Shown here one piece after another: positions 98-31,514 of a stretch of 64,000 nt of DNA. How positions within the stretch are numbered: position 1 is the stretch's first letter; the number at the start of each line of letters is the position of its first letter. Source of the stretch: an uncultured virus (IMG/VR IMGVR_UViG_3300048028_000412) (lineage: Duplodnaviria; Heunggongvirae; Uroviricota; Caudoviricetes); IMG/VR virus record IMGVR_UViG_3300048028_000412, one strand, 5' to 3'. The translations under genes were made by a program, and so were the position numbers. The notes below the pieces were generated by a model that was not told where the DNA came from, ran no database searches, and worked only from the letters and a program-made list of their open reading frames with translations.

Positions 98-2650
98 TTA
101 ACCTTCTAATGAAGCTGTTGGTGGTGTAAAGTTTGCGGTGTAGCGAGCTAGGCCTTTAGTGACTCTCAAATCTTGGATATACCCGTGATGTAAATAAGAA
201 GTACTATAGTAACCACCAATAACCATATATGTGCTAGTATAATCATGCGAATCTGATATAGAAATTTCTTCTGTGCCGTCGATATATAGTTTTGTGGTGC
301 CGCTGTTTCTAACCACGGCGGTATGATACCAAGTATTAGTTGATAATGAAAAACTAGGGCCATTTATTCCAGCAGATCCACCACCCGCATAAATTTGCCA
401 AAGACCTGTTTGAAAACCTAATGCTAATGTTTGACCATAATTTGTTGACTGTAATCCACCCGCAGTTGATGATATTTGCCAAATTCCTTTGTGGTTTGCG
501 ATAGACTTATTTACCCAGCATTCTACCGTAAAATTACCAGTTCCCATTCTTAATAAATCACTACTCAGTGTGCTCAAATAATCACCAGTGCCATCAAAAG
601 CCATTGACTTAGTATTGCTAAACTTAACCTGAGTAGTTGAGCCAGTAGTATTGCCAACCAGCTTTAAGTTAGCACTTTGGGATTTATCTATGATCGAAGC
701 GTCTGTACCTTTGAGGTGTAACTCTGCACCAGTTGAAGATAGAGGTGCAGTTGGTGGGGTAAACTCTGCTGTATATCGTGCGCTTTTAGAAACTCTAAAA
801 TCAGAGATATAACCATTAAATTGTGACCCTGTTGCGGAAGGCCAGGCACTTGCAATAGCCCAATCATTTGAACTGGTGTTCATACTTCCTGATTGAGATG
901 TATTGCCCACATCTTTTCCGTTTGAATAAACCGTAAAAGCATTACCGTTTCGGACAAAAGCGATATGGTTCCAAGCGTTTCGCTTAAATGTGCCTTGGGC
1001 AGGGTTAATACCATATTTCGTTGAGCCAACCCTAAACTCAACTTGTACCCAAGCATTTGCGCCATTGAATTCTTTTAACTCTGCGATAACTGTACAATTA
1101 TCACCTAATCCAGAAGTGCTAGAATCTCCCCAAAGCATCCCATCCCTGTCTGCGTAAAACCAACACTCAATGGTAAAATTACTGCTTCCATAAGTTTTCC
1201 AAGATCCGTTTGGAACAGTCAAATAATCGTCAGAAGTATCAAAATACACAGACCCACCGTTATCGGCTGCATCGTATTCTTCGTAGTCTAACGGGCCATA
1301 TGCTTTAATTTGTGGCGGGCCATAGTAGTTATTTATTTGAGGTGCATTTCCAGAGTAGTCAGAAAAATTAGGGCCATTTAAAAGCAATTTAGTATTTGTT
1401 ACAGATGTTAGTGCTTCTGTTGGACCTCCTAATGAAGGTACTATCGCAGTGCCGTTGACTACCCTAAGATTAGATATATCGCCAGGAAAATCTTGGCCTC
1501 CTATGCCACCAACTCCAGTATTACTATTTGAATTTAATATCCCTACAGTTGAAGGAACGCTTAAAGACTGGCCTAAAGTTCCGTTGTGATACAGTTTTAA
1601 CTTGTTATCAGAAGTATCTCTTAACAAACATATGTGTGACCAAGTATCTGCTGTAAAAACATTATCTATTCTTAACTCATAATTTAGTCCATCATCTCCA
1701 CGATAGTCGGCTCGTAAATTTGCAGCTTGTATATATAACTTACCCTTGCCGTTCCCAGAGCCGCTAAAACGATTGTGATAAATCTGGCCTTCACTGCCTG
1801 ATACAGTAGTAGGTCGTACCCAAGCTTCAATAGTAAATGCATTTGTCCCCATATTAAAATTAGAAGTGGATCCTTCAGCGTATTTTAAATAGCTGGAATT
1901 AAAATACATTGAATAACCGCCACTTCGATAGGGGCTAAAAGTACCAGCATGGGCATCGCCATTTACTGTAACGTTTTGCGAATTTCCCGACCCATCAATG
2001 TAAGTGATGTTATTGTTGTCTGACGTACCCGTAGCGGTCGCTAATAAGGTAGTATATTTACTATTAGTAATTGTTGTAATAAAATTTAATGTAAAGCTAT
2101 TAGCGCTTGTAGCTGTATTAATACCGTCGCTAGCTGTGAATGTTAGACTAAATGTGCCAGCATAAGCTTCAGTTGTAGAAGGAGTAACAGTGAATACATT
2201 ATCGCTCTGAGCAACAGTAGCGGTTGTGCCACCTCCATTAGTTAAGCTTCCAGCCGTTACGCTATATCCATATGTTAATGGCACGTCTTCAGGGTCATTT
2301 GCTGTAATTGTAATTACAGTAGCAGTTCCATCTGTTGTTAAAGTAAACGGAGTTGTTCCTGCTGAAGCATCTTGTACAGAAGTAATATTAGGGTTAGTAT
2401 TTACTAATGATATAGAATACCAACCAGAACCATTATTAATATAAAATCTGTTTGTACCAGTAACATAAGCCATAGCACCGGCATCATTACCTGACAGCGG
2501 TAAAAGCTCAGCGGAATCATAAACAGAAGCTCCAGCAGCTACATCTGCAAATACTATTCCTCCAGATCCAGTACTTTGAAGGAACTGCCCATTGCTGCCA
2601 CTATCTAGCACATTAGCTAGCTTGCTTAAATTCTTTGCATTCGCTGTCAT
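98..2650 (-). CDS. Virion adhesin with Ig/cadherin-like module and three LamG/concanavalin-A-like domains
   Basis: Repeated FTIE.W...W.H.A.VR.....LY.NG...GYI.DLRV motifs; paralogue of 23977-26493 and 28893-31514. Confidence 0.8.
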   Translation of the reverse strand: MTANAKNLSKLANVLDSGSNGQFLQSTGSGGIVFADVAAGASVYDSAELLPLSGNDAGAMAYVTGTNRFYINNGSGWYSISLVNTNPNITSVQDASAGTTPFTLTTDGTATVITITANDPEDVPLTYGYSVTAGSLTNGGGTTATVAQSDNVFTVTPSTTEAYAGTFSLTFTASDGINTATSANSFTLNFITTITNSKYTTLLATATGTSDNNNITYIDGSGNSQNVTVNGDAHAGTFSPYRSGGYSMYFNSSYLKYAEGSTSNFNMGTNAFTIEAWVRPTTVSGSEGQIYHNRFSGSGNGKGKLYIQAANLRADYRGDDGLNYELRIDNVFTADTWSHICLLRDTSDNKLKLYHNGTLGQSLSVPSTVGILNSNSNTGVGGIGGQDFPGDISNLRVVNGTAIVPSLGGPTEALTSVTNTKLLLNGPNFSDYSGNAPQINNYYGPPQIKAYGPLDYEEYDAADNGGSVYFDTSDDYLTVPNGSWKTYGSSNFTIECWFYADRDGMLWGDSSTSGLGDNCTVIAELKEFNGANAWVQVEFRVGSTKYGINPAQGTFKRNAWNHIAFVRNGNAFTVYSNGKDVGNTSQSGSMNTSSNDWAIASAWPSATGSQFNGYISDFRVSKSARYTAEFTPPTAPLSSTGAELHLKGTDASIIDKSQSANLKLVGNTTGSTTQVKFSNTKSMAFDGTGDYLSTLSSDLLRMGTGNFTVECWVNKSIANHKGIWQISSTAGGLQSTNYGQTLALGFQTGLWQIYAGGGSAGINGPSFSLSTNTWYHTAVVRNSGTTKLYIDGTEEISISDSHDYTSTYMVIGGYYSTSYLHHGYIQDLRVTKGLARYTANFTPPTASLEG

Positions 2651-2660
2651 GGTTTAGCCT

Positions 2661-5600
2661 TTATACTACTTTTACTTTAAAATTGGCAGATATAATAGAA
2701 GTAAATTCAACTGTACTTGTTCCAGCAAAATTTGCTCTATAATCAGTTTCAGGCACCGCTTGTCTATATTTAGATTCTGCATCATAATTTATAGTAACAC
2801 CATCTGATATCGGAGAAGTTCCAGATGCAGCATAAGGCGCAATCATCAAGTCAAGAGTATTAGCACTATCTTGACTAAAGTGATATCCGTCAGCTACTGC
2901 ATCCAACTGAGCTTTATTCATTCTGTTGAATGACTGAGCGCCAAGAGCTTCTTGGAGAGTCGCATGTTCATTATTATTTGTACCGTTTACCCAAGTTTCA
3001 GATGTGCTGTAATTTACCGCAGTGGTTGTATATTGATCGATAGTCCAGTCATTAGCCGCGGCAACAAATAGTTTTGATCCGTTATTATTAAAAACAATCT
3101 GTCTTGGATTAGTATTTTCTGATTGTGTACTTAATGACAGTGAAGCGTATGAAGCTGTTGATATATCATAGGCGGTTGATAAATTATATTGATATACGCC
3201 GTAACCAGTATCGTTATCTACAACAAATAGTTTAGTGCCATCACTGTTAAATGCTATACCAGCAGCACTAGTGCCGCTTTGCAAATTAAATACTGTTCCA
3301 GATCCCGCTGTGCTTACATCATATGCAGTTGAAAGAGAGTGTTCTGTAATAGTAGCATTTGTTCTTGCAAGATATATCTTTGTTCCATTGTTATTAAAAG
3401 TAAATCCATATAAGACTGATGAGCTACTTAATGATTTTGAATCGTAGCTTGCAGTACTTACGTCATATGCACTACTTAGTGAATATTGAAAAACTTTATG
3501 GTTAGACGCGCCGCTCATGTATAGCTTAGTACCATCATTATTAAATTGAATACCACTTGGCGCGCCGTCTTGAGAACTAAAACTAAAAGTTTTATTTTCA
3601 TAAGTTGGGTTGCTTATATCATAAGCACTTGATAAACTATATTGCCATATCGCTGCAGACGCAACATATAACTTTGTACCATCACTGTTAAATGCTATAC
3701 CTCTGGGGTCTAGTGTTTGAGAAGTAGGTGAAAAATAAACATTTGCATACGATGCGCTAGCTATATCATAACCTACCGCACTTCCGCCATTATTGTTATA
3801 CTGCCAAGTACCGCTATTATTCTTTGCAATCTTTCTAACACCATCAGAGCCTTTAGCTACATCCCAGCTTGTCCTATTATCGGTTGAAACTGCATAAAAG
3901 ATGTCTCCATTGTTTTTGGTTTCGTCTGCTGTCATGGAGTTGATATCTAACCAGCTTGATGAATTGATTTGACCAGAAGAAGAATTAGTAAGAGCTGGAG
4001 AGTAGGTAGAGTATGGATGAACTGCTGAAGTTCCGCCCGTAATTTCATATATCGGGTTAGCACCACCATTATTATTATATATAACCCACATTCTTTTCCC
4101 GTCACTAGACATTGATAAACCGCCATAAGTAATATTATTGCTGCTATTACCAGTAAGAGTTGACAAACTCATTGCCCCTGATGTTTTCGTTAAACTATTA
4201 CCAGAATTGCCTACACTAAATGCGCTAGGTAATGAATATACTTCAATACCACCATCGCCTAGACCGCTACCGTGCATCATAAGTTTAAGACCATCTGGCG
4301 ATATTGCTATTGCCTCTGGATCTGAATTTCCATCGAAGTTTGCAAAAGATGTATATGACATAGTAGACATATCCCATCCAGTCGAAAGTGCAAATTCAAC
4401 AATTGAGTGGTATGGATTATTATCCCACATTATTGTTATCATTTTTGTTCCATCAGAATTAAATTGAAAACTGAAGGGATTAAAATTCGTTGTAGACGGA
4501 ACTCCATCAGCACCACTAAAACTATTCCAGTTTCCGCCATTATTAAAATAATAATAGCCATCATAACTTTGCGTACTTGGAGACCAAGGTGTGCTCAGTG
4601 TAAATTGCTTTATTAAATCACTACCATGATCAGACACCCAAATTCTAGTACCGTCTGGTTTTACAACTATACCGAATTGATTGGAGTTAAGTTGAGCTGT
4701 AAAATTATCACTCGAAGCTTCAGTCATAGTAGATAAATCAAATGCTGTAGATAAATTAAATCTTAAAACTTTTCCGGCTTTTAAAACAAGCGCTATGGTT
4801 CCTTCACTATTAAAAACAACAGAACGAAGATTATCAAAAACGCTTGAGGTAGGTGAAACATTATTATTGTAAACCATTGAAGCGCCAGAACCACTTGCTC
4901 CTGTGGGAAATACGATATCTGATTGTGTTGAATAACCACTCAATTGAATACCACTACCATCAGCCTTACCTTGTGAAGATGTGAGTGTCCAAGAAGAAAT
5001 TGCAGAAGTATCTGCAAAAGCAGTAACTGACTGATATGCGCCAGAAGTTGCTGTAATAATAGCAGATCCAGAGTTACCGACAACTTTTTTACCTACGTCT
5101 GCAGTGTTAAACGCAAAAGCAGGTAAAGGTATGATATCTAAGTAGTTAGGGGCCCCCGCGCCATTGAATAAAATTATTGCAGATCCATTTTGTGTCCAAC
5201 TCACCTTAGAGTAATTTCCTGTTATGAGAACATAGTCATCTCCGGCGGCAGTAAGCCAGTTGTTCCCATCACCAAGTCCCCCTTGGTTTCCAGTAGTTAC
5301 AGTGCCTGTTTTCATAACCCATGCTGAAGGTAATTCTTTTGTAAGTGTTTTACCATTTGTATTATCTATTGCATAGAATTTTAAACCATCTTGTGATATT
5401 TTCCATCCTTTTTGATAAATATTTGCACTGGAAATTGAATAATATGGATTGTTCGCATCAAAACTTGTAGTTGTTCCAACCGGCAAATTTGCCATAGTTG
5501 TAATATCATACGAAGTATTTAAATCAAATACTCTAACTCTTGTTGAGTTGCCGCCACTAGTCCAGGCTTCAGTTGTTATGAGTTTAGTACCATCTCCTGA

Positions 5601-6401
5601 CCAATCAATGTATAGTGGATCTCTTTGTAAGTCAATCCTCCAGTTGGACTCTGTTCCAGAACCCATTGTAGATAAGTCGTATGCAGTAGATAAATCGAAC
5701 TGATAAAAATTACTACCATTGGCACAAACTATCTTAGTACCATTATTATTAAATAACATGGTAGAAATATTAGTCATTTCAGTTATTACTTTTACAGCAG
5801 CAGAACCAACAGCAGCTGCGGTATCTACGCGAAATGGAGTTGAAAGAGTCCATGCATAAATATGAGCTTCATCTGAATTACTACCTTCATAATTTCTAAC
5901 CATCCAGAATTTTGTGCCATCGTCACTTAATAGCGCACTACCCCAATAGTAATTATTAAGTGAAAATTGACCTCCACTAAATCCAGCGCCATATGTGGTA
6001 TATGTAGTTGCCGCAGTTGATGCCGGGATATGTCTATGCGAGATTGGATTACTACTAACGAATGTACCGTCACCTGTTGCGCTTGGTGTTAAATTAACAG
6101 AAGAATAAGAAATAGGTTTTTCATCATAAAAGTCATAGTTAGTTGCATTAGCATTAACGTCCCACTGACCTTTACTACTTATCCCAATTTGAGGCACCTC
6201 TTTATATGCTTGAAGAATAGGAACAGGAGTAGAAGCTTTTGATAGTGTTATATTAGTTGTTTGATTTGAATCCATAGAAGCTGTAAGAGATCCAATTGTT
6301 TCTCCACCAGCGCTTACTTCACTTGTAAATGCAATTGACCCATCATCTTCAATATTAATATTTCTAGCTAGTTTTGCAAGATTAAAATTCTTAGTTGCCA
6401 T
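2661..6401 (-). CDS. Large virion adhesin with three beta-propeller-type repeat blocks
   Basis: F..DGTKLY...QY.LS.AYD.STASY repeats; likely start MATKNF at 6401 after GAGG, overlapping the portal stop; paralogue of 16230-19769. Confidence 0.75.
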   Translation of the reverse strand: MATKNFNLAKLARNINIEDDGSIAFTSEVSAGGETIGSLTASMDSNQTTNITLSKASTPVPILQAYKEVPQIGISSKGQWDVNANATNYDFYDEKPISYSSVNLTPSATGDGTFVSSNPISHRHIPASTAATTYTTYGAGFSGGQFSLNNYYWGSALLSDDGTKFWMVRNYEGSNSDEAHIYAWTLSTPFRVDTAAAVGSAAVKVITEMTNISTMLFNNNGTKIVCANGSNFYQFDLSTAYDLSTMGSGTESNWRIDLQRDPLYIDWSGDGTKLITTEAWTSGGNSTRVRVFDLNTSYDITTMANLPVGTTTSFDANNPYYSISSANIYQKGWKISQDGLKFYAIDNTNGKTLTKELPSAWVMKTGTVTTGNQGGLGDGNNWLTAAGDDYVLITGNYSKVSWTQNGSAIILFNGAGAPNYLDIIPLPAFAFNTADVGKKVVGNSGSAIITATSGAYQSVTAFADTSAISSWTLTSSQGKADGSGIQLSGYSTQSDIVFPTGASGSGASMVYNNNVSPTSSVFDNLRSVVFNSEGTIALVLKAGKVLRFNLSTAFDLSTMTEASSDNFTAQLNSNQFGIVVKPDGTRIWVSDHGSDLIKQFTLSTPWSPSTQSYDGYYYFNNGGNWNSFSGADGVPSTTNFNPFSFQFNSDGTKMITIMWDNNPYHSIVEFALSTGWDMSTMSYTSFANFDGNSDPEAIAISPDGLKLMMHGSGLGDGGIEVYSLPSAFSVGNSGNSLTKTSGAMSLSTLTGNSSNNITYGGLSMSSDGKRMWVIYNNNGGANPIYEITGGTSAVHPYSTYSPALTNSSSGQINSSSWLDINSMTADETKNNGDIFYAVSTDNRTSWDVAKGSDGVRKIAKNNSGTWQYNNNGGSAVGYDIASASYANVYFSPTSQTLDPRGIAFNSDGTKLYVASAAIWQYSLSSAYDISNPTYENKTFSFSSQDGAPSGIQFNNDGTKLYMSGASNHKVFQYSLSSAYDVSTASYDSKSLSSSSVLYGFTFNNNGTKIYLARTNATITEHSLSTAYDVSTAGSGTVFNLQSGTSAAGIAFNSDGTKLFVVDNDTGYGVYQYNLSTAYDISTASYASLSLSTQSENTNPRQIVFNNNGSKLFVAAANDWTIDQYTTTAVNYSTSETWVNGTNNNEHATLQEALGAQSFNRMNKAQLDAVADGYHFSQDSANTLDLMIAPYAASGTSPISDGVTINYDAESKYRQAVPETDYRANFAGTSTVEFTSIISANFKVKVV

Positions 6402-7914
6402 CTGCATCCTCTTCATTATCATCTGGAATTTCACCTGATGACTTTTCTTGTGCTATCTGATCTTTCATCTCTTTCATCGCATCATCATCTAGTAAGAGAA
6501 CGTTTTTCATTACATATTCTTTAGAGAAGAATTCACCAACATACTGCTGCATTGTATCTAGAGTCTGTAATTTTTCTCTAAGTAACTCTGCATCTCTTAA
6601 TTCAGAGAAATGATTATCTCTAATATAATCAACTACAATGTCGTTCTTCCAATTATCCCAATCTTCTTCGGTAATGACACCTTTAAGCATTAACTGCTTC
6701 TTAAGAACGCCTAAGAATAAGCTTGAAAACTTATTACGCAATCTATCAATAAACTTCTGAAACTTAAGCTCATCTCTATTTATCTCAGAAGCTCTACCTA
6801 GTAATCCAGCTGCTTGATCTTGTTCTAGGCGAGAAACAGGAACATTAAGAGCTTTATACATCTTCTTCTGGAAGTATAAGATATCATCAATCTGGCCTAG
6901 ATTCTCACCACCTGGTAAAGTAGTAATCTCTGTGCCTCTACCACCTTCCCTGCGCGGCAACCAGAAGTCTTCGAGCATGGACATATGCTTTCGATCATCT
7001 CTGATCTTACCTGTATCAGCGTCGTACACAAGTTTATTACGATAGCGAGACATAATATCTTTCATATATGTTTCAGCTTTGCCTCTTGGCAAGTTGCCTA
7101 CATCAATATAAAAGATTCTACGTTCAGGTGCTCTAGCTAGTCTGTAAATAACTAACGAGTCTTCCATCATCCGCAATTGGTTAATCGGCTTTAAAGCTTT
7201 ATGAAGATGCGATACAATTCTCTTACGATCGATATCGAGCAAGCCAGAAGTAACATAAGACACAGCATCATTTGATAGCTTTACGCCTTGATTCGTTCCA
7301 CCAGCCTTTTCTTGGTAGATATAAAATTCATTTACGCTCTCTACTAATGAAGCGCCAGTAACTTCGTCTTTTTTCTTTTTTACTTCTTTTACCTTACGAA
7401 TCTTAGCAGCATCAATTGGTCTTATTTCTTGAATGCCTGCTTTAGGTTGAGATTCATTAATAACAAGGTGGTGATATACTCTACCATCAATATACCATCT
7501 TCTAAATATATCATGACCTAACTCTTTGAAGTTAAGCATAGAACAAACATCTTCAAACTCTGTAGTAATTACTTTCTTAAGTTGATCACTAAGACCCTCA
7601 ACATGATCTAAGATGAGAGTAACTGGTAGTTCATTCTCACCTGATACGATAGATTCGTTTACAATATCATCAATAGCAGCATCTACTTCAGGATGATAAG
7701 ATACAGCCCGGTATTGTCTAATATTCTGAATATTATCTTTTGCGTGTTCGCCGCCATCTACGTTGACATAAGTGCCATAATGCGAACCGGCTGCTGTAAC
7801 ATATCCAGCTCCGTCCTCATCTACAGGGGGAACAATAGAACGAAGTTTATCATCGGACTTATCTTTTGTCCGCTTAATTTCAAATCCAAAAAGTCTTATA
7901 CTATCATCAGCCAT
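6391..7914 (-). CDS. gp20: Portal vertex protein
   Basis: NQLRMMEDSLVIYRLARAPERRIFYIDVGNLP, EDFWLPRREGGRGTEITTLPGG. Confidence 0.98.
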   Translation of the reverse strand: MADDSIRLFGFEIKRTKDKSDDKLRSIVPPVDEDGAGYVTAAGSHYGTYVNVDGGEHAKDNIQNIRQYRAVSYHPEVDAAIDDIVNESIVSGENELPVTLILDHVEGLSDQLKKVITTEFEDVCSMLNFKELGHDIFRRWYIDGRVYHHLVINESQPKAGIQEIRPIDAAKIRKVKEVKKKKDEVTGASLVESVNEFYIYQEKAGGTNQGVKLSNDAVSYVTSGLLDIDRKRIVSHLHKALKPINQLRMMEDSLVIYRLARAPERRIFYIDVGNLPRGKAETYMKDIMSRYRNKLVYDADTGKIRDDRKHMSMLEDFWLPRREGGRGTEITTLPGGENLGQIDDILYFQKKMYKALNVPVSRLEQDQAAGLLGRASEINRDELKFQKFIDRLRNKFSSLFLGVLKKQLMLKGVITEEDWDNWKNDIVVDYIRDNHFSELRDAELLREKLQTLDTMQQYVGEFFSKEYVMKNVLLLDDDAMKEMKDQIAQEKSSGEIPDDNEEDADGN

Positions 7915-7934
7915 GTTCGTTCCTAAAATTAGTT

Positions 7935-7961
7935 ATAGAGGGGCCTTTAAAGCCCCTCTAT
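7935..7961 (-). terminator. Stem-loop after tail tube gene (terminator or 3' protective hairpin)
   Basis: ATAGAGGGGC / GCCCCTCTAT perfect 10-bp inverted repeat; U-tract weak. Confidence 0.55.
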
Positions 7962-7962
7962 C

Positions 7963-7970: not shown

Positions 7971-7975
7971 GTGCT

Positions 7976-8503
7976 TTAAGAAGTAGTCGCTGCTTCCCAA
8001 TATTGCACTTGGAATTCAACTGTAAATCTTTCAATTTCATTCTCTGAAGCATAGCTCAGATCAATTGGAGATAACCCTGTAGGGAAACATCCTCTGAAAT
8101 TATAAGTTTTAGCGGTTGTGCCGTCTTTGTTAAGCTGTTCAACAATCAGGTCTGCCTCATAGTCAACAGGATTAGTAAGACCTGTATTTGCACTATGGGC
8201 ATTCATTCCGTTCATCCAACGTTCCATCGCATCGCGGACATTAAAATCTGTGTCGTTAATAATAGTTGGAGTCCACACATCAAATGTACGATCCCCAGCC
8301 ATTTTTAATTGACGACCACGGAAAGGAACAATAATTGTACCTACTGTTGATGCAGGCAACTGAGCTGCCTCACATAAGAACGATGTAAGTTCTACATCGC
8401 CGCCAGCATAACCTGGAAAGTTAATAGTGGCTTTAAAGAGATTAGGTCTCGCTCCACCACCACGTAACTTGGCTTTAAAATCATCTACGCCTAGTACTGC
8501 CAT
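7976..8503 (-). CDS. gp19: Tail tube protein
   Basis: GGARPNLF, FRGRQLKMAGDRTFDVW, IERFTVEFQVQYWE. Confidence 0.97.
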   Translation of the reverse strand: MAVLGVDDFKAKLRGGGARPNLFKATINFPGYAGGDVELTSFLCEAAQLPASTVGTIIVPFRGRQLKMAGDRTFDVWTPTIINDTDFNVRDAMERWMNGMNAHSANTGLTNPVDYEADLIVEQLNKDGTTAKTYNFRGCFPTGLSPIDLSYASENEIERFTVEFQVQYWEAATTS

Positions 8504-8514: not shown

Positions 8515-10113
8515 TTATACCTGCAATCCGGCTACTTCTTCGAAGTCGACACCGGTTCTAACAGCTACAAAGTTTAGTGTAATGTAGTTAATAGAGCGGG
8601 CAGGCTTAATGAAGATATTCGCAATGAATTCATTTCTATCTACCACAGTGGCAGTGTTGTTTGTTTCATCACACACAACTCTGAAATCTGTGATACCTCT
8701 TCTTCCTTTGACTTCTCTTAGGAATGGCTCTACAATGTTTACAAACTCGGCTCTTGTGAACTCATCATTGAATTCAAAGATCGTGTTTCTTGCCGCAAGT
8801 GCAATTGCGCGCTCAACAGTGTTAAACAATCTACGCACATTAATTCTGTCAAATGCAGAAGGCCGTGACATATTTGTTTTATCACCATATAGCAACACAC
8901 CTTGACCCGGAAGGTTTGCAATCGGATTAACATTTGCTTTGTATAGAGCATCTCTTTCAGCTTTCGAAGGGCTGTATGAAAGAGCAGTAATACCTAAATA
9001 AGCACCTCTACGTGACCCTGCTGGTGAGTACCATGGGCCGGCATCTCTATCAGAAGCTGCCATAATACCTGCAGTAGAAGATGCTGCTGGAATTTGGATA
9101 TATTTATCATTGTACTTGTCATACACTTTAAGATAATTATTATCGATAAACAGGTATGAAGTATCAGAGAAAGTAGCAGCAGTAGTTAGTGCATTAGCAT
9201 TAGGTGTAGATGAGTTAACAATATCTGCTCTTGCTGGAGATGTTACGACAACGCAATCTTTACGTAGTGTACCAGCTGTAGATACTAAATCATTTACTAC
9301 AGTAGTTTGATCTGATCTAGTGGCCATACCTGGCGCGATAAGAAAGTCTACTTCGATATTATCTTTATCTTCAAATAGATCAAATCCTAAAGCAACTTCT
9401 GCTGTACCTAATGCAGCGCTGTTAACACCGTTAGCTAAAGACAAATTGTCTGCTGAATCTGTTACGGTATTCATCCAGATATATTCTGAAGACCGGTTGA
9501 TAACATTTTTTATATAGTTAGTTGAACCATCATCATTCACGGCATTTGCATTTTCAGATACAAATGGGAATGTCTCTAGTACAGTATTTACCGATCCGGA
9601 GATATCTCCATCCTCATCAACAACTACTACATGCTGTTCATTAGCAGTCGGCGCAGCATCAAATTTAGCAGCATATGCCCAACCATCCCAGGTTAGCGGT
9701 CCAGCCACTGATACTTTTAATGAATTACCAAGGGCCCCAGCATATTTTGCAAAGACTTTACCAGTCCATGTGCCAGCTTCCCATGTATCATGATTTTTAA
9801 TCAGCGCGGCGGTGCCGCTTGCGTCGGTTGCATTCCTTGCAGCAGAGGTTACTGCCCTTACTACCTGCAAAGAGCTAGAATATTTTAGAAAATGTGCAGC
9901 AGAATGAAAATCTACTGAATGTGTATCGTCTGGGTTTCCAAACTGTTCAGCCAGCCCCGCTTCGTTAGATATAAGCGTGACGCTTTCAGCTGGTCCCCAG
10001 CGAAAGTTACCTACAACCGCGCCAGTAGTAGATTGAACATTAGGCACACCGCCTGTAAGATCAACCTCTTTGACTACGATTGCCGGCGACTCCGAGGGAG
10101 TAAATAATGCCAT
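8515..10113 (-). CDS. gp18: Contractile tail sheath protein
   Basis: F.WGP, PWYSPAG.RRG, SAFDRINVRRLF, FIKPARSINYITLNFVA. Confidence 0.98.
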   Translation of the reverse strand: MALFTPSESPAIVVKEVDLTGGVPNVQSTTGAVVGNFRWGPAESVTLISNEAGLAEQFGNPDDTHSVDFHSAAHFLKYSSSLQVVRAVTSAARNATDASGTAALIKNHDTWEAGTWTGKVFAKYAGALGNSLKVSVAGPLTWDGWAYAAKFDAAPTANEQHVVVVDEDGDISGSVNTVLETFPFVSENANAVNDDGSTNYIKNVINRSSEYIWMNTVTDSADNLSLANGVNSAALGTAEVALGFDLFEDKDNIEVDFLIAPGMATRSDQTTVVNDLVSTAGTLRKDCVVVTSPARADIVNSSTPNANALTTAATFSDTSYLFIDNNYLKVYDKYNDKYIQIPAASSTAGIMAASDRDAGPWYSPAGSRRGAYLGITALSYSPSKAERDALYKANVNPIANLPGQGVLLYGDKTNMSRPSAFDRINVRRLFNTVERAIALAARNTIFEFNDEFTRAEFVNIVEPFLREVKGRRGITDFRVVCDETNNTATVVDRNEFIANIFIKPARSINYITLNFVAVRTGVDFEEVAGLQV

Positions 10114-21449: not shown

Positions 21450-21450
21450 A

Positions 21451-23931: not shown

Positions 23932-23960
23932 CTTGAACTTTCTTTAGTTTTAATTTATAG

Positions 23961-23968
23961 TATTTATA
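23961..23968 (-). promoter_or_regulatory. T4-type late promoter
   Basis: TATAAATA in intergenic gap. Confidence 0.8.
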
Positions 23969-23976
23969 AGAGAAGA

Positions 23977-26493
23977 TTAACCTTCTAATGAAGCTGTTGG
24001 TGGTGTGAAGTTTGCGGTGTATCTTGCTAGACCTTTGGTAACTCTTAGGTCTTGGATATAGCCATTAAATCCATAGTTTCCTGATGCTGTAGCTCCAATA
24101 GTATTATCAGTAGCTGTACCCCATTCCGTATTGTCAGTTTCCTGGTTACCTTGCGAACCATTGATATAACACTTACATTGGTTACTATATATACCTGTTC
24201 TTACAAAAGCAACGTGTACCCAATTTCCTGCTGTAGGCATATTAGCATAACACGTGCTACCCATAGTGTTAGTGTCTCCATCACTATTACCAGAGTCAAT
24301 TTGTCCTCCGCCCAACTTAACAGCGTATTTATTCCCTGCACTGGTGCTAGACCCAAAAATATGATACCTGCTTGAATATGAAGGGTAGCTTGCTGTATAT
24401 ATCCAAAACTCTACAGTGTACGGATCGTAACCAAACGCAAATAAATCATCTGGTAAATTAGTAATATAATCACCCGTTCCATCAAAATACATTGACTTAG
24501 TATTACTAAACTTGGCCTGAGTAGTTGAACCAGTAGTATTACCAACAAGCTTTAGGTTAGCGCTCTGAGATTTATCGATGATCGAAGCATCTGCGCCTTT
24601 AATGTGAACTAGCGCGCCTGTTGATGACGTTGGCGCTGACGGAACAGTTGTTCCTTCTAAACTGGATGTAGATATTTTAAAGTCTGAAATATACCCATGG
24701 CCACCATAATTGCCTGAAGTATCCCGCCCAACTTCCAAATTTGTTGCAGATAGATTAATCGTATTATTTGATTGCGTCCATTTTTGCACCCCATCTAGAT
24801 GCAATGTCGCAGTTCCTGAAATTCGTCTTACACAAAAGTGTTGCCATCTATTAGCTATACTTCCACCAGATCCATTAAAAGATGTTACATTGCCTGGAAA
24901 GTCTAAACGAATTTCTCCGCCTGCTTTAAGTAATAAACCAAGCCCGTTAACATTATTGTTTCCACCTATAGTCCAAATTCTTTTATTCCCTGATGAGTGT
25001 ATTTCGGGAGGATAGAACCAACCAGAAATACTAAAATCGCCAGTTCCAATTGCAGAACCTAAAGTGCAACTTACAGAGTCAGTTGAGGAAGATAAATTAT
25101 CAACAAAAATAGAGCCGCCGTTATCTGTTGCTGAGTATTCATCATAGTCGTAGGGTGAGAATGGTTTTAAAAAAGGTGTACCGTCTACAGATATACTTCC
25201 AGTTGCGCTTGGTGTTTCATAAATAATATAGGGTTTATGACAAGTTATAAACAAGGTGTTTGAATCAGCCGTAAGAGGTTCAGTAGGCACGGCTTTAGAC
25301 CTTGCAGAAGTAGATATTCTAAAATCTCTAATGTACCCATCTACATAATAACTAGATCTACCCCCAATTAAAAAATCATTTGTTACAGATAAGTTTGTTG
25401 AGTTGCTTGTGCTAGGATCAATGCTTTGATTATTGTCATCGATGTAAATTTTTATCGTGTTAGATTCTCGTACAACTTGAACAAAATGCCATTCGTTTTT
25501 AGAAATAACCGTGCCAGTTGATAATGTGTCATAATTAGTATTTCCAATGCGCATTCTAAGCGTTTGGTTGTTACCGTTTTTATACAACTCAAATCCATTG
25601 TTTGAAGACCCTAATCTTTCGCACAGAACCATCCAATCATCTGAGGTTGAATATACCCAAAATTCGATAGAAAAATCACCGCTTCCGATTGCTGATAAAC
25701 CAGAAAGTTCAAACCTTTGACTGGAAGCTCGTACAAACTCAGTAGAATACCCACCACTGCGATACGGGCTAAACGTACCAGCGTGAGCATCACCATTTAC
25801 AGTAATAGTATGATTATTTGAAGATGCATCCGTAATGTTATTGTTATCAGAAGTTCCATCTGCGGTAGCTAATAGAGTAGTGTAATTACTATTAGCAATT
25901 ATAGTAGTAAAATTTAATGTAAAGCTATTAGCACTGTTACCTTGGTTAATACCATCGCTAGCTGTAAAGGTTAGCTCAAAGGTTCCTGCATACGCTTCTG
26001 TGGATGATGGAGTAATAGTAAATTTATTTACATCAGAATCAGTACCTTGTGCTACAGTCGCGGTTGTGCCACCACCATTAGTCAAGCTTCCGCTCGTTAC
26101 GCTATACCCATATGTTAATGGAATACCTTCTGGATCTGCAGCTGTAACAGTAATAACAGTTCCTGTTCCGTCTGTAGCTAAGGTAAATGGAGTCGTACCT
26201 CCAGCAGAATCTTGTACGGATGTGATATTAGGATTAGTGTTTACAAGGCTTACCGAATACCAACCTGTACCGTTACTAATATACATTCTGTTTGACCCGG
26301 TAACAAATGCTTGATCTCCTGCAGATACTCCTGATAATGGAAGATCTGTGGTAGAGTCATAGGTAGTAATAGAACTACCTCCAGCTGAAGAAGCTCTAGC
26401 CCAAGCACCAGATGTACTATTATAAGTCCAAGTATTACCGCCTAGAGTAGCACTCTGACCGTTTGTTGGACTGTCTGGAAAATTTATTGCCAT
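23977..26493 (-). CDS. Virion adhesin with three LamG-like domains
   Basis: MAINFPDSP N-terminus; same scaffold and C-terminus (RYTANFTPPTASLEG) as 98-2650. Confidence 0.8.
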   Translation of the reverse strand: MAINFPDSPTNGQSATLGGNTWTYNSTSGAWARASSAGGSSITTYDSTTDLPLSGVSAGDQAFVTGSNRMYISNGTGWYSVSLVNTNPNITSVQDSAGGTTPFTLATDGTGTVITVTAADPEGIPLTYGYSVTSGSLTNGGGTTATVAQGTDSDVNKFTITPSSTEAYAGTFELTFTASDGINQGNSANSFTLNFTTIIANSNYTTLLATADGTSDNNNITDASSNNHTITVNGDAHAGTFSPYRSGGYSTEFVRASSQRFELSGLSAIGSGDFSIEFWVYSTSDDWMVLCERLGSSNNGFELYKNGNNQTLRMRIGNTNYDTLSTGTVISKNEWHFVQVVRESNTIKIYIDDNNQSIDPSTSNSTNLSVTNDFLIGGRSSYYVDGYIRDFRISTSARSKAVPTEPLTADSNTLFITCHKPYIIYETPSATGSISVDGTPFLKPFSPYDYDEYSATDNGGSIFVDNLSSSTDSVSCTLGSAIGTGDFSISGWFYPPEIHSSGNKRIWTIGGNNNVNGLGLLLKAGGEIRLDFPGNVTSFNGSGGSIANRWQHFCVRRISGTATLHLDGVQKWTQSNNTINLSATNLEVGRDTSGNYGGHGYISDFKISTSSLEGTTVPSAPTSSTGALVHIKGADASIIDKSQSANLKLVGNTTGSTTQAKFSNTKSMYFDGTGDYITNLPDDLFAFGYDPYTVEFWIYTASYPSYSSRYHIFGSSTSAGNKYAVKLGGGQIDSGNSDGDTNTMGSTCYANMPTAGNWVHVAFVRTGIYSNQCKCYINGSQGNQETDNTEWGTATDNTIGATASGNYGFNGYIQDLRVTKGLARYTANFTPPTASLEG

Positions 26494-26537
26494 TTGTTAT
26501 GCCTTAATTTAATTTTAAAAGGTGTGTCGCTCATAAA

Positions 26538-27335
26538 TTAATCCTTAATACCCATATACTTAGTATTAACACAGTCAGCTTTACCAAATATACGTTCGGC
26601 AGTTTTATCTGCATTTTTACAATACTTGTCTGCCATCTGATCAACGAACTCTTCGTAATCATTGCTGTGTGGTAAATGGCCTTCGCTAATACGATTTGCC
26701 GTATGCTGAACGTACCCGCTTACCTCTGTTAGGGCGACTTGAGGATGAACTCCGTATTGCGTCAAATACTCAATAGTAGCTGTTGAGGCTCTACCACCAT
26801 CTAACAAATTTCTATACATTAGTTCAAAACCACGCCTAACGTGGTGACGCTTTTCTTCTGCTTCAAAAGCCTCTTCGCTAAACTCTTCAATTTTATGAGT
26901 TTCTTTAATGCTTTCGTAGCTGTCTATCAGCGTGGCAATATCTTTAATACTACCGTTAATTTTGTTTTCAATTGATATAAGAGAGTGACGCTTATGTCTA
27001 AGCTTGGCCTCTGCAACTATATCATTTAGTCCTTCTAGCTCTAAAATTTCCACTCTTAATTCAGCGTGTGTAACTTGCGCTTCAGAAAGCGCCATCTTAC
27101 GTTTCTCAACTTCAGCCGTGATCTGGCGCAGCATTCGCATTGGGGAGTGACCGTTCAGCATTGTGAGAGTCATCATATTAATAGTGGTCTGGCTGTTCTG
27201 ACGATCAAAAGCTCTTGTCGCCTGATCTATCATAGGTAGCTTTTCCGCTACTCGTGCAGCGGCTACCTGATTAATGTTTTCAGAAGCCTCAACAGGGAGA
27301 CTAAACGTAATTGGCTTTGTTATAACTTGGCTCAT
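26538..27335 (-). CDS. Helical/coiled-coil hypothetical protein
   Basis: Charged helical composition; likely start MSQVIT at 27335 through TAATG overlap. Confidence 0.7.
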   Translation of the reverse strand: MSQVITKPITFSLPVEASENINQVAAARVAEKLPMIDQATRAFDRQNSQTTINMMTLTMLNGHSPMRMLRQITAEVEKRKMALSEAQVTHAELRVEILELEGLNDIVAEAKLRHKRHSLISIENKINGSIKDIATLIDSYESIKETHKIEEFSEEAFEAEEKRHHVRRGFELMYRNLLDGGRASTATIEYLTQYGVHPQVALTEVSGYVQHTANRISEGHLPHSNDYEEFVDQMADKYCKNADKTAERIFGKADCVNTKYMGIKD

Positions 27336-28888
27336 TATGCTGCTGCCCCTGATGTGGCACATCCATTATCACTATTTGCAGTTAAATCGCCAAAGTCAGT
27401 TGCGTTGCCCGTTGTTTGTATGCTGACCCGATCCATTGTGTTGTTAGCACCTCCACCAGAAATAACGGCATAGGTATGGTCACTACACACCCCACAGTTG
27501 CCTCTAGCAACCGTTGCATCTCCAAAGTCTACTGCATTAGCAGAGCTTGAAATGGTGCTGTATTGTATTTCGTTTGAGCTATTGCCCATTTTCCAAATGG
27601 CTCTTGTGCTATCGGCGGCACCTGCAACGTAACTTGTATTTGACCCTAATAAATCCCCGTGATCAGAGGCGTTAGAGGTTGTTGCCATTGTAATTTTGTT
27701 AATAACTGTTGTACTAAGCCCACCCGCAATAAGACCGTGAGTAGTATTAGCCGCACCGCCACATCTAGCTTTGGCTTCAGTAAGATCTCCAAAATCAGAA
27801 GAATTACCTTCTGTGGCTATAGTGACATACTCGATATTATTTACGCCGCTTACAGACCCAAGTCTACCGCCAGCCATAAGGCCGTATGTGCCATTTGATA
27901 CTGATGCGTGTTGACCTAAAGTGTTGCTAAGGTATCCGAATGCTGTTGCATTCCCAAGAGTAGCAACAGTGATGTAATCTATAGTATTTATCCACCCTCC
28001 ACCATTTCTAAGCGCACGAGTACCATTGCTACAAGCATTTGATAAACCAACGCTTGCGCTTTGATCGCCAAAGTCTGCTGCGTTTGAAGGAGTTGCTATA
28101 GTAAAGTAGTCTATTGCGGTTGAGTACGCAATAAAATGAATGCCCCTCGCACCGTGATTAACGGGAAACACAAGGCTCAGTGTAACAATTCGTGTCGTAG
28201 TAGAAATCCCATCAGATGCAGATAACCTTACCTTCACATCACCAGCGTGACTGGTATTTGTCGTCGGATCAAAAGTAAATACGCCAGTAGTTTGGTTTAT
28301 ACTAGTAGCATTTGCTAACTGATTGGGAAGAGCGTTAGAAGCATTAGGATAGGCTATGCCATAAGTTATTCCAAATCCTTCTGGATCGTAAGCTACCATA
28401 GTGACAGTAGATGTTGAGCCATCGCCATTTAAACCTAGAGTAGTCACTGGCTCAGTAGTGACAACAGGGCTTTCATCAGCGCCGGCGCTTACCCGCTTCC
28501 AAGCAGATCCCGCCCGAATGTATAAAACGTTCTTATCTTCATCAAATGCAAGATCACCTTCTGATGGAGAGGACACAGCGTCTATCGCGGTCTTGTTAGC
28601 ATAGGATGTTACGCCACCGGCTTCACCACTATTACCAGCTGGACCACTAATACCTACCCATTGAGAAGATGATCCGTCATTATAATAAACATACAAGGAA
28701 CCATCTGTGCTATTAAACCACTGATCACCAGCTACAGCACCTGAAGGAGCAGTATCTGATACTGTAACATTTGTTGTATTGTCACCACTAACATCCCACT
28801 TACTTGTAGTAGAATTGTATGTATATACAGCGCCGTTAATAGTTTGTGTCGCGCCGTTACTTGGACTGTCTGGAAAATTAATTGCCAT
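27335..28888 (-). CDS. Virion adhesin with Ig-like module and IDY.TIAT.GNA.DFGDL repeats
   Basis: About six repeats of ~43 aa (propeller-like); MAINFPDSP N-terminus. Confidence 0.7.
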   Translation of the reverse strand: MAINFPDSPSNGATQTINGAVYTYNSTTSKWDVSGDNTTNVTVSDTAPSGAVAGDQWFNSTDGSLYVYYNDGSSSQWVGISGPAGNSGEAGGVTSYANKTAIDAVSSPSEGDLAFDEDKNVLYIRAGSAWKRVSAGADESPVVTTEPVTTLGLNGDGSTSTVTMVAYDPEGFGITYGIAYPNASNALPNQLANATSINQTTGVFTFDPTTNTSHAGDVKVRLSASDGISTTTRIVTLSLVFPVNHGARGIHFIAYSTAIDYFTIATPSNAADFGDQSASVGLSNACSNGTRALRNGGGWINTIDYITVATLGNATAFGYLSNTLGQHASVSNGTYGLMAGGRLGSVSGVNNIEYVTIATEGNSSDFGDLTEAKARCGGAANTTHGLIAGGLSTTVINKITMATTSNASDHGDLLGSNTSYVAGAADSTRAIWKMGNSSNEIQYSTISSSANAVDFGDATVARGNCGVCSDHTYAVISGGGANNTMDRVSIQTTGNATDFGDLTANSDNGCATSGAAA

Positions 28889-28892
28889 TCTA

Positions 28893-31514
28893 TTAACCTT
28901 CTAATGAAGCTGTTGGTGGTGTGAAGTTTGCGGTATATCTACCTAAACCTTCAGTAAATCTTACATCTTGCATATATCCAGTTACTTCATTGTAGCCATT
29001 GCCTAGATTATTAGGTGATGGAGAACCTATAATCCACTCATTAAAACCGTCTATTGCAGGCGATTGTTGATAATTAGTTGCGGTTTGATCTAAATTCCCA
29101 TTTACAAAAAATCTAGTGGTTGAATATGGTGAACCTGTTACTCTTGATATTGCTAAATGATACCATTGACCTGTACTAAGCACTTGGCTACCACTCTGAA
29201 TAACTGAACCCCCAACCATCGCCGCTAACTTAGAGTTTCTTAATTCAAATGCTATTCTATTGGTTACATCAGCCGAAGATAACATATGAATAACACCGCT
29301 AACACTATTAAAATAACACCAAGCTTCAAAAGTATATTCCCCATTGCCAGGAATATCAACATCTCTTGCAGCATAAGCAATTACTTTATCGTGTAAACTA
29401 CCAGCAAAATACATTGACTTCGCACCAGTAAATTTAGTCGTGGTTGATCCAGTAGTAGTACCAAATAGCTTTAAGTTAGCGCCCTGAGACTTATCTATGA
29501 TCGAAGCGTCTGTACCTTTAATGTATAGTGCTGCGCCAGATGAGGATAGAGGAGAAGTAGGAACTGTAGATGACCCAGAAGGAGTACCAGAAACTACCTT
29601 TAAATCGGAGACATATCCATTGAGTGGGTATGCGGTACTCCAAGCAGAACCTAAGTCGCCTATGTAAAATGCACTGTTAGTTGGTGAATTAGAATTACTA
29701 ACACTTCCCAATAAAGTTCCATCAACAAAAAACTTTAACGTAGATCCATCCCATTGCAAATCTGTGTAGTACCATCTACCAGCGGAAACAGAAGTCGATG
29801 TGCCAAGATTAGCGCTTCCGATCTGAGCAAACCAATTGTTATTATCAATCGTTACACCAGTTCTTCCCGAATGCCCCGCTGTACCCTGACCCCATACAGC
29901 GCCATCGGTTGTATCATTCAAATAAACCCACGCCGTTACAGTAAAACTGGTTGATGGAATAATTTGAGTTGCAGTTGTGTTTAAACTATCCCCATCAAAA
30001 TACACAGATCCACCGTTATCTGTTGTTGAGTATTCATTGTAGTTGTATGGTGAGTATGGTTTCGTGGAGGTATTGCCGTTTATTGTGATAGAATGATCGT
30101 TAGTCGATCCATCGGCAATGTATGGCAAGTGGCAGGTAAGCAGCACAGTTCCACTAACAGCTGTCAAAGGTTCTGAAGGTGGCGTGAAATTATTATTTGA
30201 ATACTCGACATTTGTTGTAATTCTAAAGTCTCTAATATGACCATTCATTAAATATGAGGTATTAACATAGCCACCAATACTTATTGCGCTATTAATTGTT
30301 CTTGCTGTAGTATCACTAGCAAATTCAACCCCATCCAGATATGCTTTAAAGGTGTTGCCACTTCTTGTAATTGCAACGTGATACCACTTATTAGCTTCTA
30401 CTGCCGACGAAGCACCTAACTCTCCACCAGAGCTTGAATATAATCGAAACTGTCCTGATGTATGATTATAGAGTTCTAAAATAGTATTTGCAGAAGTTAA
30501 AGTTCCAAAGCTAAATATTCCAACATCTGTAGCTATTGCATTTAAGTTTACAAAAAATTGAATAGTAAAATCGCCTGATAAATTAATTGTAGGGGTTCTT
30601 AAATAATCCCCAGTACCATCAAAGTAAGTAGAATACCCTCCACTACGATACGGGCTAAACGTACCAGCATAAGCATCTCCAGTTACTGTAATGCTATGGT
30701 TATTTGAAGACGTATCAGCTATGTTATTGTTATCAGAAGTTCCAGTTGCTGTCGCTAACAAAGTTGTATACTTACTATTAGTAACTATAGTAATAAAATT
30801 CAATGTAAAGCTATTAGCGCTCGTTGCAGTATTAATTCCATCTGAAGCTGTAAATGTCAAACTAAATGTACCAGCATAAGCTTCGGTAGTAGAGGGCGTA
30901 ACTGTAAACTTGTTAGTATTAGACCCTGTACCTTGTACAACAGTTGCAGTTGTACCTCCACCATTGCTTAGAGAACCGCTAGTAACAGAATAGGTATAAG
31001 TTAATGGTACATCTTCTGGATCAGTTGCAGTAATTGTTATAACACTAGCTGATCCATCAGTTGATAAGGTAAATGGTGTAGTATTAGAACTAGCATCTGC
31101 TACACTTGTAATATTAGGGTTAGTATTTACTAACGATATAGAATACCAGCCTGTTCCATTAAAAATATAAAACCGATTTACTGCAGTCACATAAGCTTGA
31201 TCTCCAGCTGTATTTCCAGTCAATGGTAGATTATCAATTGTAGCATATATTGATACAGAAGACCCATCACTGCCGGCAGCACCGGTAGGGCCTTTTAGGC
31301 CAACTGGATTACTCAATACCCATTGAGAAGATGATCCGTCATTATAATAAACATATGTTCTAAGAACCGTTGAATCAAACCACAAATCACCCGCACTGGG
31401 CCCAGACGGCGCTGTATCTGATACAGTGATAGAGCCACCTCCCCCAGTAGCTCCTGCCGCTAAACCCTTGGTGACTCTTTTTGCTTTTACTTGAGAATAT
31501 CTATTGTTTGCCAT
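28893..31514 (-). CDS. Virion adhesin with three LamG-like domains
   Basis: Same scaffold as 98-2650 and 23977-26493; DTAPS..GDLWFDS module. Confidence 0.8.
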   Translation of the reverse strand: MANNRYSQVKAKRVTKGLAAGATGGGGSITVSDTAPSGPSAGDLWFDSTVLRTYVYYNDGSSSQWVLSNPVGLKGPTGAAGSDGSSVSIYATIDNLPLTGNTAGDQAYVTAVNRFYIFNGTGWYSISLVNTNPNITSVADASSNTTPFTLSTDGSASVITITATDPEDVPLTYTYSVTSGSLSNGGGTTATVVQGTGSNTNKFTVTPSTTEAYAGTFSLTFTASDGINTATSANSFTLNFITIVTNSKYTTLLATATGTSDNNNIADTSSNNHSITVTGDAYAGTFSPYRSGGYSTYFDGTGDYLRTPTINLSGDFTIQFFVNLNAIATDVGIFSFGTLTSANTILELYNHTSGQFRLYSSSGGELGASSAVEANKWYHVAITRSGNTFKAYLDGVEFASDTTARTINSAISIGGYVNTSYLMNGHIRDFRITTNVEYSNNNFTPPSEPLTAVSGTVLLTCHLPYIADGSTNDHSITINGNTSTKPYSPYNYNEYSTTDNGGSVYFDGDSLNTTATQIIPSTSFTVTAWVYLNDTTDGAVWGQGTAGHSGRTGVTIDNNNWFAQIGSANLGTSTSVSAGRWYYTDLQWDGSTLKFFVDGTLLGSVSNSNSPTNSAFYIGDLGSAWSTAYPLNGYVSDLKVVSGTPSGSSTVPTSPLSSSGAALYIKGTDASIIDKSQGANLKLFGTTTGSTTTKFTGAKSMYFAGSLHDKVIAYAARDVDIPGNGEYTFEAWCYFNSVSGVIHMLSSADVTNRIAFELRNSKLAAMVGGSVIQSGSQVLSTGQWYHLAISRVTGSPYSTTRFFVNGNLDQTATNYQQSPAIDGFNEWIIGSPSPNNLGNGYNEVTGYMQDVRFTEGLGRYTANFTPPTASLEG

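Follow-up and report, generated by a model that had tools for sequence, protein, structure and literature searches.

The stretch of DNA analysed in this study (64,000 nucleotides, nt; hereafter the window) belongs to an uncultured virus of the IMG/VR database (record IMGVR_UViG_3300048028_000412) and carries three long genes, here called A, B and C, whose products share the same layout: a variable N-terminus, a conserved N-terminal domain (N-domain) of about 200 amino acids (aa) and three LamG slots. An earlier note on this DNA, made without database searches, had described them as adhesins in which constant blocks (the anchors) alternate with divergent LamG cores, and had proposed that homologous recombination at the anchors swaps single receptor-binding domains between paralogues or co-infecting phages. 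The three open reading frames (ORFs) were confirmed, and their slots and anchors, the latter taken from the alignment and the module coordinates, lie as follows:

98-2650, minus strand: gene A, 850 aa (slot 1 at 1307-1909, slot 2 at 716-1249, slot 3 at 185-601)
23977-26493, minus strand: gene B, 838 aa (slot 1 at 25168-25743, slot 2 at 24604-25110, slot 3 at 24064-24489)
28893-31514, minus strand: gene C, 873 aa (slot 1 at 30063-30629, slot 2 at 29523-30005, slot 3 at 28980-29411)
30630-31229 (C), 1910-2503 (A) and 25744-26343 (B), minus strand: anchor 1, the N-domain through FSPYRSGGYS
30006-30062 (C), 1250-1306 (A) and 25111-25167 (B), minus strand: anchor 2, KPYSPYNYNEY..DNGGS
29412-29522 (C), 602-715 (A) and 24490-24603 (B), minus strand: anchor 3, IKGTDASIIDKSQ..TTGSTT..KSM
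28896-28979 (C), 101-184 (A) and 23980-24063 (B), minus strand: anchor 4, GYMQD..RYTANFTPPTASLEG, the C-terminus

The protein alignment spans 940 columns, in which B and C are 48% and 46% identical to A, respectively. All constant blocks quoted in the earlier note are present in it, from GWYS.SLVNTNPNITSV to AGTFSPYRSGGYS, followed by Y.EY...DNGGS, KG.DASIIDKSQ.ANLKL.G.TTGSTT and the C-terminal RYTANFTPPTASLEG. The LamG cores between the blocks are strongly divergent (6-45% aa identity) and the extreme N-termini differ (12-75% per 20-column bin in columns 1-95), both as the note had described, the N-terminus of C being longer than those of A and B and containing a short Gly-rich GxxG stretch. 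This variable N-terminus is probably the attachment end. Laminin_G_3 (PF13385) was found in three stretches each of A, B and C, with E values of 1.9e-45, 6.2e-45 and 4.8e-41 and scores of 155.2, 153.5 and 140.8 bits against a cut-off of 27.6. Matches to PDB entries, at the level of sequence only, were to LamG/LNS domains (4qvs_A, 2e-13; neurexin, 1e-11), the proteins matched being an S-layer domain-containing protein, neurexin, an arabinanase, laminin and pentraxins. When the N-domains (aa 1-235, 1-238 and 1-285) were compared with Pfam, nothing usable appeared at E up to 1, DUF5992 being set aside at an E value of 0.49. Look-alikes of the N-domain in the ESM Atlas were Ig-like, PKD and He_PIG domains (feature score 0.81, TM 0.42-0.51), so the conserved N-domain may be an Ig-like or PKD-type sandwich, which is offered as a lead and not as evidence.

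The nearest virus record, an IMG/VR contig of 152,048 bp that is 86% complete (G001), was used as sister phage. It is collinear with the window at 99.7% identity over 32,951 nt, 99.1% over 8,616 nt and 99.2% over 10,512 nt, with only five divergent tracts, all located in putative host-interaction genes: slots 1-2 of C, the Gly-rich gene at 20125-21120, two beta-propeller genes, and gene A from aa 208 to the C-terminal anchor. Gene B is identical in 838/838 codons, and of gene A, which is 100% identical at the nt level in contig L011, G001 retains no more than aa 1-207 and ~20 aa at the C-terminal end. The two phages have the same nt sequence (100%) in codons 1-289 and 704-873 of gene C, and the intervening codons 290-703 reach only about 30% aa identity, with indels. 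Agreement ends at the FSPYR codons and resumes at the KSMYF codons, the left breakpoint coinciding with the 3' end of anchor 1. Fully identical DNA on both sides of such a tract points to replacement, since divergence in place cannot yield this pattern. The replaced tract, with boundaries from blastn and from the codon comparison with G001, is:

29529-30634, minus strand: slot 1, anchor 2, slot 2 and anchor 3 of gene C

The G001-type allele of C, with the same boundaries at 30634 and 29529, was found in three contigs (G001, L067 and L147). In a scan of viral contigs with the N-terminal 130 aa of C, just two close orthologues came up, each of the G001 type, and a scan of metagenomes added L147 and L148. 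As for the window allele (29300-30900), at least 90% of its sampled words were present in 20 runs from 15 studies. Bridging by contigs was tested in four runs from four studies, none of them flagged as a possible source of the window. A single contig in X18 (29413-30805) spans both junctions with zero differences, and contigs in X16 (29692-30675) and X17 (29815-30716) span the left junction, also without differences. In X14 and X16, other contigs leave the window sequence at 30646 and continue as the reverse complement of G001 codons 290-300, and both alleles therefore coexist in the same seawater samples. The window allele of C is not an assembly artefact. At 28885-28892, contigs of all four runs that match the C-terminal anchor run on downstream into two other sequences, which probably represent the surroundings of other paralogues, or of other gene arrangements present in the population. 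In two contigs with 86-92% backbone identity (L149 and L150), the position of C (28894-31200) holds only ~1 kb instead of 2.3 kb, with a much shorter gene.

A fourth member of the family begins at the edge of the window:

1-93, minus strand: first 31 codons of gene D (ATG at 93-91), which runs off the window start

The rest of D is carried by contig L011, which is identical to the window (100% over 5650 nt) and extends 3.3 kb beyond position 1. D has more than 1144 aa, with a beta-propeller-like insertion in its N-domain. Compared with its counterpart in G001 (D'), the N-domain region is 96% and slot 3 98% identical at the nt level, and slot 2 is unique. Slot 1 of D (765 nt), in turn, is 97.3% identical at the nt level to slot 1 of the G001 counterpart of gene A (A'), a different paralogue, which bears out the swapping between paralogues that had been proposed. 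The right junction of this event lies inside DHGGSVYFDG, where the sequences coincide over ~30 nt, and crossovers at DHGGSV(YFDG) in anchor 2 were found in other pairs as well as in D. Types of anchor 3 travel with the cassettes: that of window C resembles the variant of G001 A' (85% nt), and that of the G001 counterpart of C (C') resembles window A (87% nt). These identities are ungapped and lowered by a one-codon indel, and were used only to recognise anchor types.

The insertion in D is a beta-propeller-like domain of ~270 aa (SGL, E 2.6e-6; WD40-type matches), seen at 5987-6796 of L011 and at 61673-62488 of G001. It sits at different points of the N-domain region in D and in G001 A', and the scaffold thus also takes an optional extra module. 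A 74.8-kb metagenome contig (L218, 5001-7424) was compared with window 21700-36000 and has a single LamG gene in place of C, two small genes and B. Its first 29 aa are of the C type (97%), its N-domain is of the B type (88%), and in slot 2 it shares 94% with the C orthologue of L148. This gene resembles the product of an unequal crossover of C with B, or else an arrangement that preceded their duplication.

Sharing of cassettes extends well beyond these genomes. A total of 5.8 billion proteins was searched with residues 295-660 of C, 8000 candidates were scored and the best 120 were listed. Among the matches listed, cassettes of A, B and C recur in other proteins at 91-99% aa identity (one at 68%), with other partners and at other positions. 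P0002 has slots 1 and 2 of C at 93-94%, its N-domain and slot 3 being unrelated; P0009, which also illustrates swapping between paralogues, joins slot 2 of C (99%), in position 1, to slot 2 of A (93%), in position 2; P0017 joins the N-domain of B (90%) to slot 2 of C (94%); and P0011 has slot 1 of B (94%) together with a relative of C slot 1 (68%) in position 3. In contigs L225/L226, a cassette in the slot-1 position is 90.5% identical to slot 2 of C over 475 nt and has a hybrid linker, ..SALHI|CHLPYIADGS. When 49 unique family proteins from the loci were compared, 122 of the 1176 pairs combined at least 75 aa at 90% identity or more with at least 90 aa below 70%.

A hidden Markov model built from the nine window slots detected 703 LamG modules in 168 of 169 related proteins. 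These include 61 cassette clusters at 90% identity or more, each with at least two proteins, and 9 of the 61 occur in more than one ordinal position. Among 66 three-LamG proteins, 62 pairs share a module in the same position at 90% or more, and in 55 of them another module is below 60%. Patterns with one slot shared prevail (LHL 22, HLL 21, LLH 4), confirming swaps of single domains; HHH was found in 7 pairs, HHL in 5 and three other patterns once each. The slots do not follow a common history either, congruent slot trees having been named in the earlier note as the pattern contrary to exchange. Indeed, no correlation appears between the pairwise identities of the four modules (Spearman rho -0.06 to 0.11) when the 55 proteins with N-domain and three slots are compared in 1485 pairs. 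Two-state segmentation of 20 pairs placed the switches at linker motifs, and in 8 close pairs, in which whole slots are at least 94% identical, 16/16 breakpoints fall at these motifs. The chimeric alleles with breaks at anchors that the note had predicted are therefore common, in genes C and D and in database and contig pairs alike. The genes are mosaics, their breakpoints lie at the linkers, cassettes are shared across genes and positions, and both alleles of C coexist; the whole has the appearance of a shared cassette pool from which genes, slots and phage lineages are dealt anew, almost without linkage.

The strong evidence for exchange is thus the comparison with other genomes and not the window alone. 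Among A, B and C, the blocks that had been called near-identical are so in protein (75-100%) and not in DNA (58-90% per 20-codon bin), and the long DNA identities claimed for them are modest. What stands of that claim is an exact 29-mer at 684-712 and 29491-29519, inside anchor 3 (0.00 expected in 100 shuffles), which is the longest exact match seen in a tabulation that was not exhaustive. Synonymous divergence (dS) between the three genes was calculated by the Nei-Gojobori method. Slots range from 1.4 to infinity (lowest values 1.42-1.46), with identical-codon use equal to the codon-usage expectation. Anchor 1, which accounts for ~200 of the ~290 anchor codons, is nearly saturated (1.18-1.45), with a share of identical codons of 0.51-0.56 vs 0.41-0.42 expected. 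Values for anchors 2, 3 and 4 are 0.40-1.09, 0.75-1.16 and 0.32-0.70, the last being the lowest of the four. Saturation of dS in the anchors, which the earlier note regarded as contrary to its proposal, was found only for anchor 1, which overlaps the lowest slots; anchors 2-4 (0.3-1.2) lie below the slots, indicating that these short anchors are younger than the slots. Concerted evolution, understood as within-genome homogenisation of the N-domains among paralogues, was also considered and is not supported, since in the N-domain C and B resemble each other less (58-88% nt per 20-codon bin) than they resemble their L148 and L218 counterparts (86.7-88.6% nt).

Taken together, an account in which LamG cassettes are exchanged at the linkers, with homology guiding the exchange, is judged the most likely and is held with good, though not full, confidence. 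Whole LamG domains behave as cassettes, one or two of which are replaced at a time, and the junctions fall at the linkers FSPYR.GGYS(TYFDG), PFSPYDY.EY..DHGGSV(YFDG), (H)IKGTDASIIDKSQ..TTGSTT..KSMYFDG and GYIQD.R.TKGLARYTANFTPP. Exchange takes three routes: between alleles of one gene in phages that occur together, from one paralogous gene to another, and from one slot position to another, so that the proteins of this phage group are combinations drawn from a shared pool. The crossovers are most likely made by homologous or short-homology recombination with the phage's own T4-type machinery, in co-infection or between paralogues, and selection would then retain only the junctions that keep domain boundaries. 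The likely outcome would be a combinatorial change in glycan or receptor binding.

Several observations weigh against this account. The anchors of A, B and C, with DNA identities of 58-90%, a longest exact match of 29 nt and dS of 0.3-1.45, bear no sign of recent conversion among the three copies, and offer only short homology for classical recombination. Neither candidate parent is a good match for ~150 nt of anchor 1 on the left side of the D event, which means that the event is older or that a third sequence was involved. The database proteins were picked by their similarity to slots 1-2 of C, with 8000 candidates scored, and the census is therefore biased towards sharing; in distant pairs, segmentation switches merely mark the limits between conserved and variable protein. 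The 16/16 breakpoints at linkers are also expected from selection acting after random recombination and, alone, are no proof of guidance by homology. The synonymous-site excess described below was drawn from phylogenetically non-independent sequences. Finally, the term adhesin depends on the LamG fold, the PHROG labels and genomic position.

On this last point, a host-binding role of A-D is suggested by their LamG/ConA-like (concanavalin A-like) fold family, by the PHROG labels of relatives (virion structural protein, baseplate wedge subunit, tail fiber), by their position in the structural module and by their being where near-identical phages differ, and swaps would in that case be expected to change host range. 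It is unlikely, yet deserves consideration, that exchange is real and the proteins are instead decorative or accessory lectins (Hoc-like or whisker-like), with swaps that tune adhesion and not host specificity. LamG/ConA-like folds bind many ligands, as the varied PDB matches recall, A and D lie outside the main fibre cluster, and the window has separate fibre-like genes. Nevertheless, the tracts that differ between phages ~99% identical are exactly these genes and other fibre and propeller genes, which is a signature of host interaction; the labels of relatives point to the baseplate wedge or tail fibre; and ConA domains are among the putative receptor-binding proteins of marine myophages in the available text of Zaragoza-Solas et al. 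(2020, PMC7029224).

For the mechanism, random breakage filtered by selection is the main rival to guidance by homology. Recombination would be real and unguided, with illegitimate or microhomology-driven breaks arising anywhere, only joins at domain boundaries surviving, and the linkers conserved for structure. The modest identity of paralogue anchors, the left junction of D and the 16/16 breakpoints, which selection for intact domains would also give, speak for it, as do the scrambled codons at the end of anchor 1, where six Arg codons are used. However, synonymous identity at the junction motifs exceeds the codon-usage expectation (AGTFSPYR.GGYS 1.43x, D.GGSVYFDG 1.63x, KGTDASIIDKSQ 1.50x, TTGSTT 1.83x and RYTANFTPPTA 1.45x), compared with 0.93-1.25x for N-domain motifs that are equally invariant. 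Rare codons have also been retained in anchors 3 and 4; for example, Ser is TCG in 12/22 distinct DNA versions of the anchor-3 core (usage 0.05), where ATC is kept in 15/21 (usage 0.15). Both features fit crossover assisted by homology or repeated homogenisation of the linkers. Moreover, the right junction between D and A' falls within the ~30-nt common stretch. A UvsX-type recombinase is part of the T4-like core, and G001 encodes a RecA-family ORF (40.1 bits, cut-off 27). Unguided breakage is accordingly regarded as distinctly unlikely, and homologous crossover, guided by homology rather than merely selected, as the better explanation of the junctions.

It is very improbable that the mosaics are chimeric metagenome assemblies produced by the repeated anchors. 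All the sequences are metagenome contigs, the anchors are repeats common to paralogues and strains, and short contigs do end close to them (loose ends at 28885, 28892 and 30646). On the other hand, the window allele and both its junctions recur in the 20 runs of 15 studies and are bridged by single contigs in independent runs, the G001 allele was assembled with the same junctions in three contigs, the D/A' cassette is identical at 97.3% and not 100% and comes from different assemblies, and in the window the paralogue anchors are exactly identical over at most 29 nt.

A dedicated enzyme system, that is, a diversity-generating retroelement (DGR) or a site-specific invertase (shufflon), has scarcely any probability. 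DGRs act on Mtd-type tail fibre proteins, through adenine-directed mutagenesis of the C-type-lectin tip, and the Mtd_N domain, which was first named in a DGR target, is present in the neighbouring gene at 31516-34005 (E 2.5e-9). The LamG genes resemble such systems in that a putative receptor-binding protein is diversified, with Mtd_N next door. By contrast, a reverse transcriptase was looked for without success (RVT_1 had no match in G001, 152 kb and 86% complete), and alleles differ by the replacement, with indels, of whole domains and not by point changes in a variable repeat. A direct-repeat scan of 1-35000 returned no near-identical pair of template and variable repeats in A, B or C. As the earlier note had stated, neither reverse transcriptase nor invertase appeared: integrase, invertase and reverse transcriptase families are absent from the PHROG hits of 42 window ORFs. 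A shufflon finds no support in these hits, which contain no integrase or invertase family, nor in the orientation of the family genes, all on one strand, inverted repeats not having been scanned. Lastly, the absence of any exchange, with purifying selection holding the anchors while slots diverge fast in place, would fit the conserved blocks and saturated slots of the window alone, but is next to impossible given the 100% identical DNA flanking a ~30% aa tract with indels in gene C, the 91-99% cassettes in proteins otherwise unrelated or differently ordered, the uncorrelated module similarities and the slot shared by D and A'.

On the basis of its gene content, the window is classified as the structural module of an uncultured marine T4-like myovirus. 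Its large ORFs lie on the minus strand throughout, and PHROG profiles, run on the 42 window ORFs, identified the following genes:

6391-7914, minus strand: portal (E 1.9e-195)
7976-8503, minus strand: tail tube (2e-63)
8515-10113, minus strand: sheath (1e-114)
52-63 kb, minus strand: baseplate hub and wedge genes (baseplate wedge 1.7e-117)
minus strand: large and small terminase, neck and sheath-stabiliser genes
42666-46694, 21451-23931 and 31516-34005, minus strand: separate fibre-like genes

Portal, sheath, tube, terminase, neck and baseplate genes are in synteny of the Straboviridae/Kyanoviridae type, and several fibre-like genes lie between the T4-type structural genes. B and C sit between the baseplate and neck genes, and A and D outside the main fibre cluster, downstream of the portal. 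The best tblastn match of the portal was phage C48C1 (Kyanoviridae; 65.9% aa), with about 52% aa identity to cyanophages and to the Methylophilales phage Melnitz. No match to 23977-31514 was found by megablast in 50,697 GenBank phage records. No psbA match was detected in G001, so a cyanobacterial host is not indicated.

Other genes of the region deserve mention. Two beta-propeller-repeat paralogues (2661-6434 and 16230-19769; 1257 and 1179 aa) are 39% identical, with a near-identical C-terminal ~100 aa and a conserved N-terminal block. Both are among the few tracts that differ from G001, where identity is patchy (70-93%) or lacking, which suggests the same mosaic behaviour as in the LamG genes. 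The fibre-like paralogues at 21451-23931 and 31516-34005 (826 and 829 aa), one of them with the Mtd_N domain, lie in gene order just upstream of B and C, respectively, and share DSA..ITS.VDAAFINALTIDADTLG repeat units and a 229-aa block at 62% identity; a unit of fibre gene plus LamG gene thus looks duplicated. An exact 39-nt repeat (28655-28693 and 31317-31355), encoding YVYYNDGSSSQWV, is located in the N-terminal parts of the gene at 27335-28888 and of C; it could stem from a short conversion tract or serve as a common attachment motif. The window and G001 versions of the Gly-rich GGX-repeat gene at 20125-21120, of 331 and 315 aa, respectively, are not alignable at high identity.

Recombination at conserved motifs of phage adhesins is already established, and what is new here is the architecture and the population-level evidence, not the mechanism. 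In the distal tail-fibre locus of T-even phages (gp37/gp38), according to the available text of Trojet et al. (2011, PMC3157838), where Tetart et al. (1996, 1998) are cited, hypervariable segments lie between conserved glycine-rich motifs and exchanges occur in or near the motifs. The LamG genes are alike in that conserved motifs alternate with hyperplastic segments and recombination there yields chimeras with new combinations, and they follow the gp38-type design as regards junctions in or near conserved motifs (16/16 breakpoints in the 8 close pairs). The Pfam and PHROG hits of A, B and C include no gp38/adhesin family, and homology to gp38 is not indicated. In contrast to gp38, where loops of one small domain vary, the units here are whole LamG domains of ~150 aa. 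Each protein offers three slots, each genome has at least four paralogues, and cassettes cross paralogues and slot positions.

Recent domain mosaicism of phage receptor-binding proteins has been broadly documented, as the available text of Smug et al. (2023, PMC10684548) reports. The resemblance lies in a near-identical N-terminal part joined to non-homologous distal domains in close phages, and in fragments at 90% identity or more in otherwise unrelated proteins. By contrast, homologous LamG units are permuted here in a fixed three-slot scaffold with conserved linkers, and the words LamG and concanavalin each appear 0 times in the main text of that study. The host recognition cluster of pelagimyophages and cyanomyophages, as outlined in the available text of Zaragoza-Solas et al. 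(2020), is a hypervariable island with concanavalin A, Mtd and collagen-repeat proteins, located within the structural region of marine T4-like myophages, where B and C are comparably placed. Variability in gene content of the island is treated there, and not cassette exchange inside LamG proteins, the word recombination appearing 0 times in the main text. In a limited full-text literature search, no account was met of LamG proteins with several slots on one scaffold whose cassettes move from paralogue to paralogue and from one slot position to another.

A further reading, put forward tentatively and with more doubt than conviction, is that the linkers are DNA-level recombination signals, held similar by selection or constant homogenisation, and that the four or more paralogues of a genome and co-infecting relatives form one self-organised combinatorial system that needs no dedicated enzyme; the retained rare codons and the excess of synonymous identity hint at it. 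If this were true, each infection would, at a measurable rate, redistribute lectin cassettes of ~150 aa over the ~12 slots of a virion, and an abundant marine phage group would gain a ready-made repertoire of receptor specificities. For the study of how attachment changes in uncultured marine phages, the LamG family provides a tractable system in which exchange units and junctions are defined and two alleles are present together in seawater samples. If the LamG modules bind receptors, cassette content could become a metagenome marker of host or glycan specificity, and the conserved linkers would be natural splice points for chimeric binding proteins in studies of phage-host interactions.

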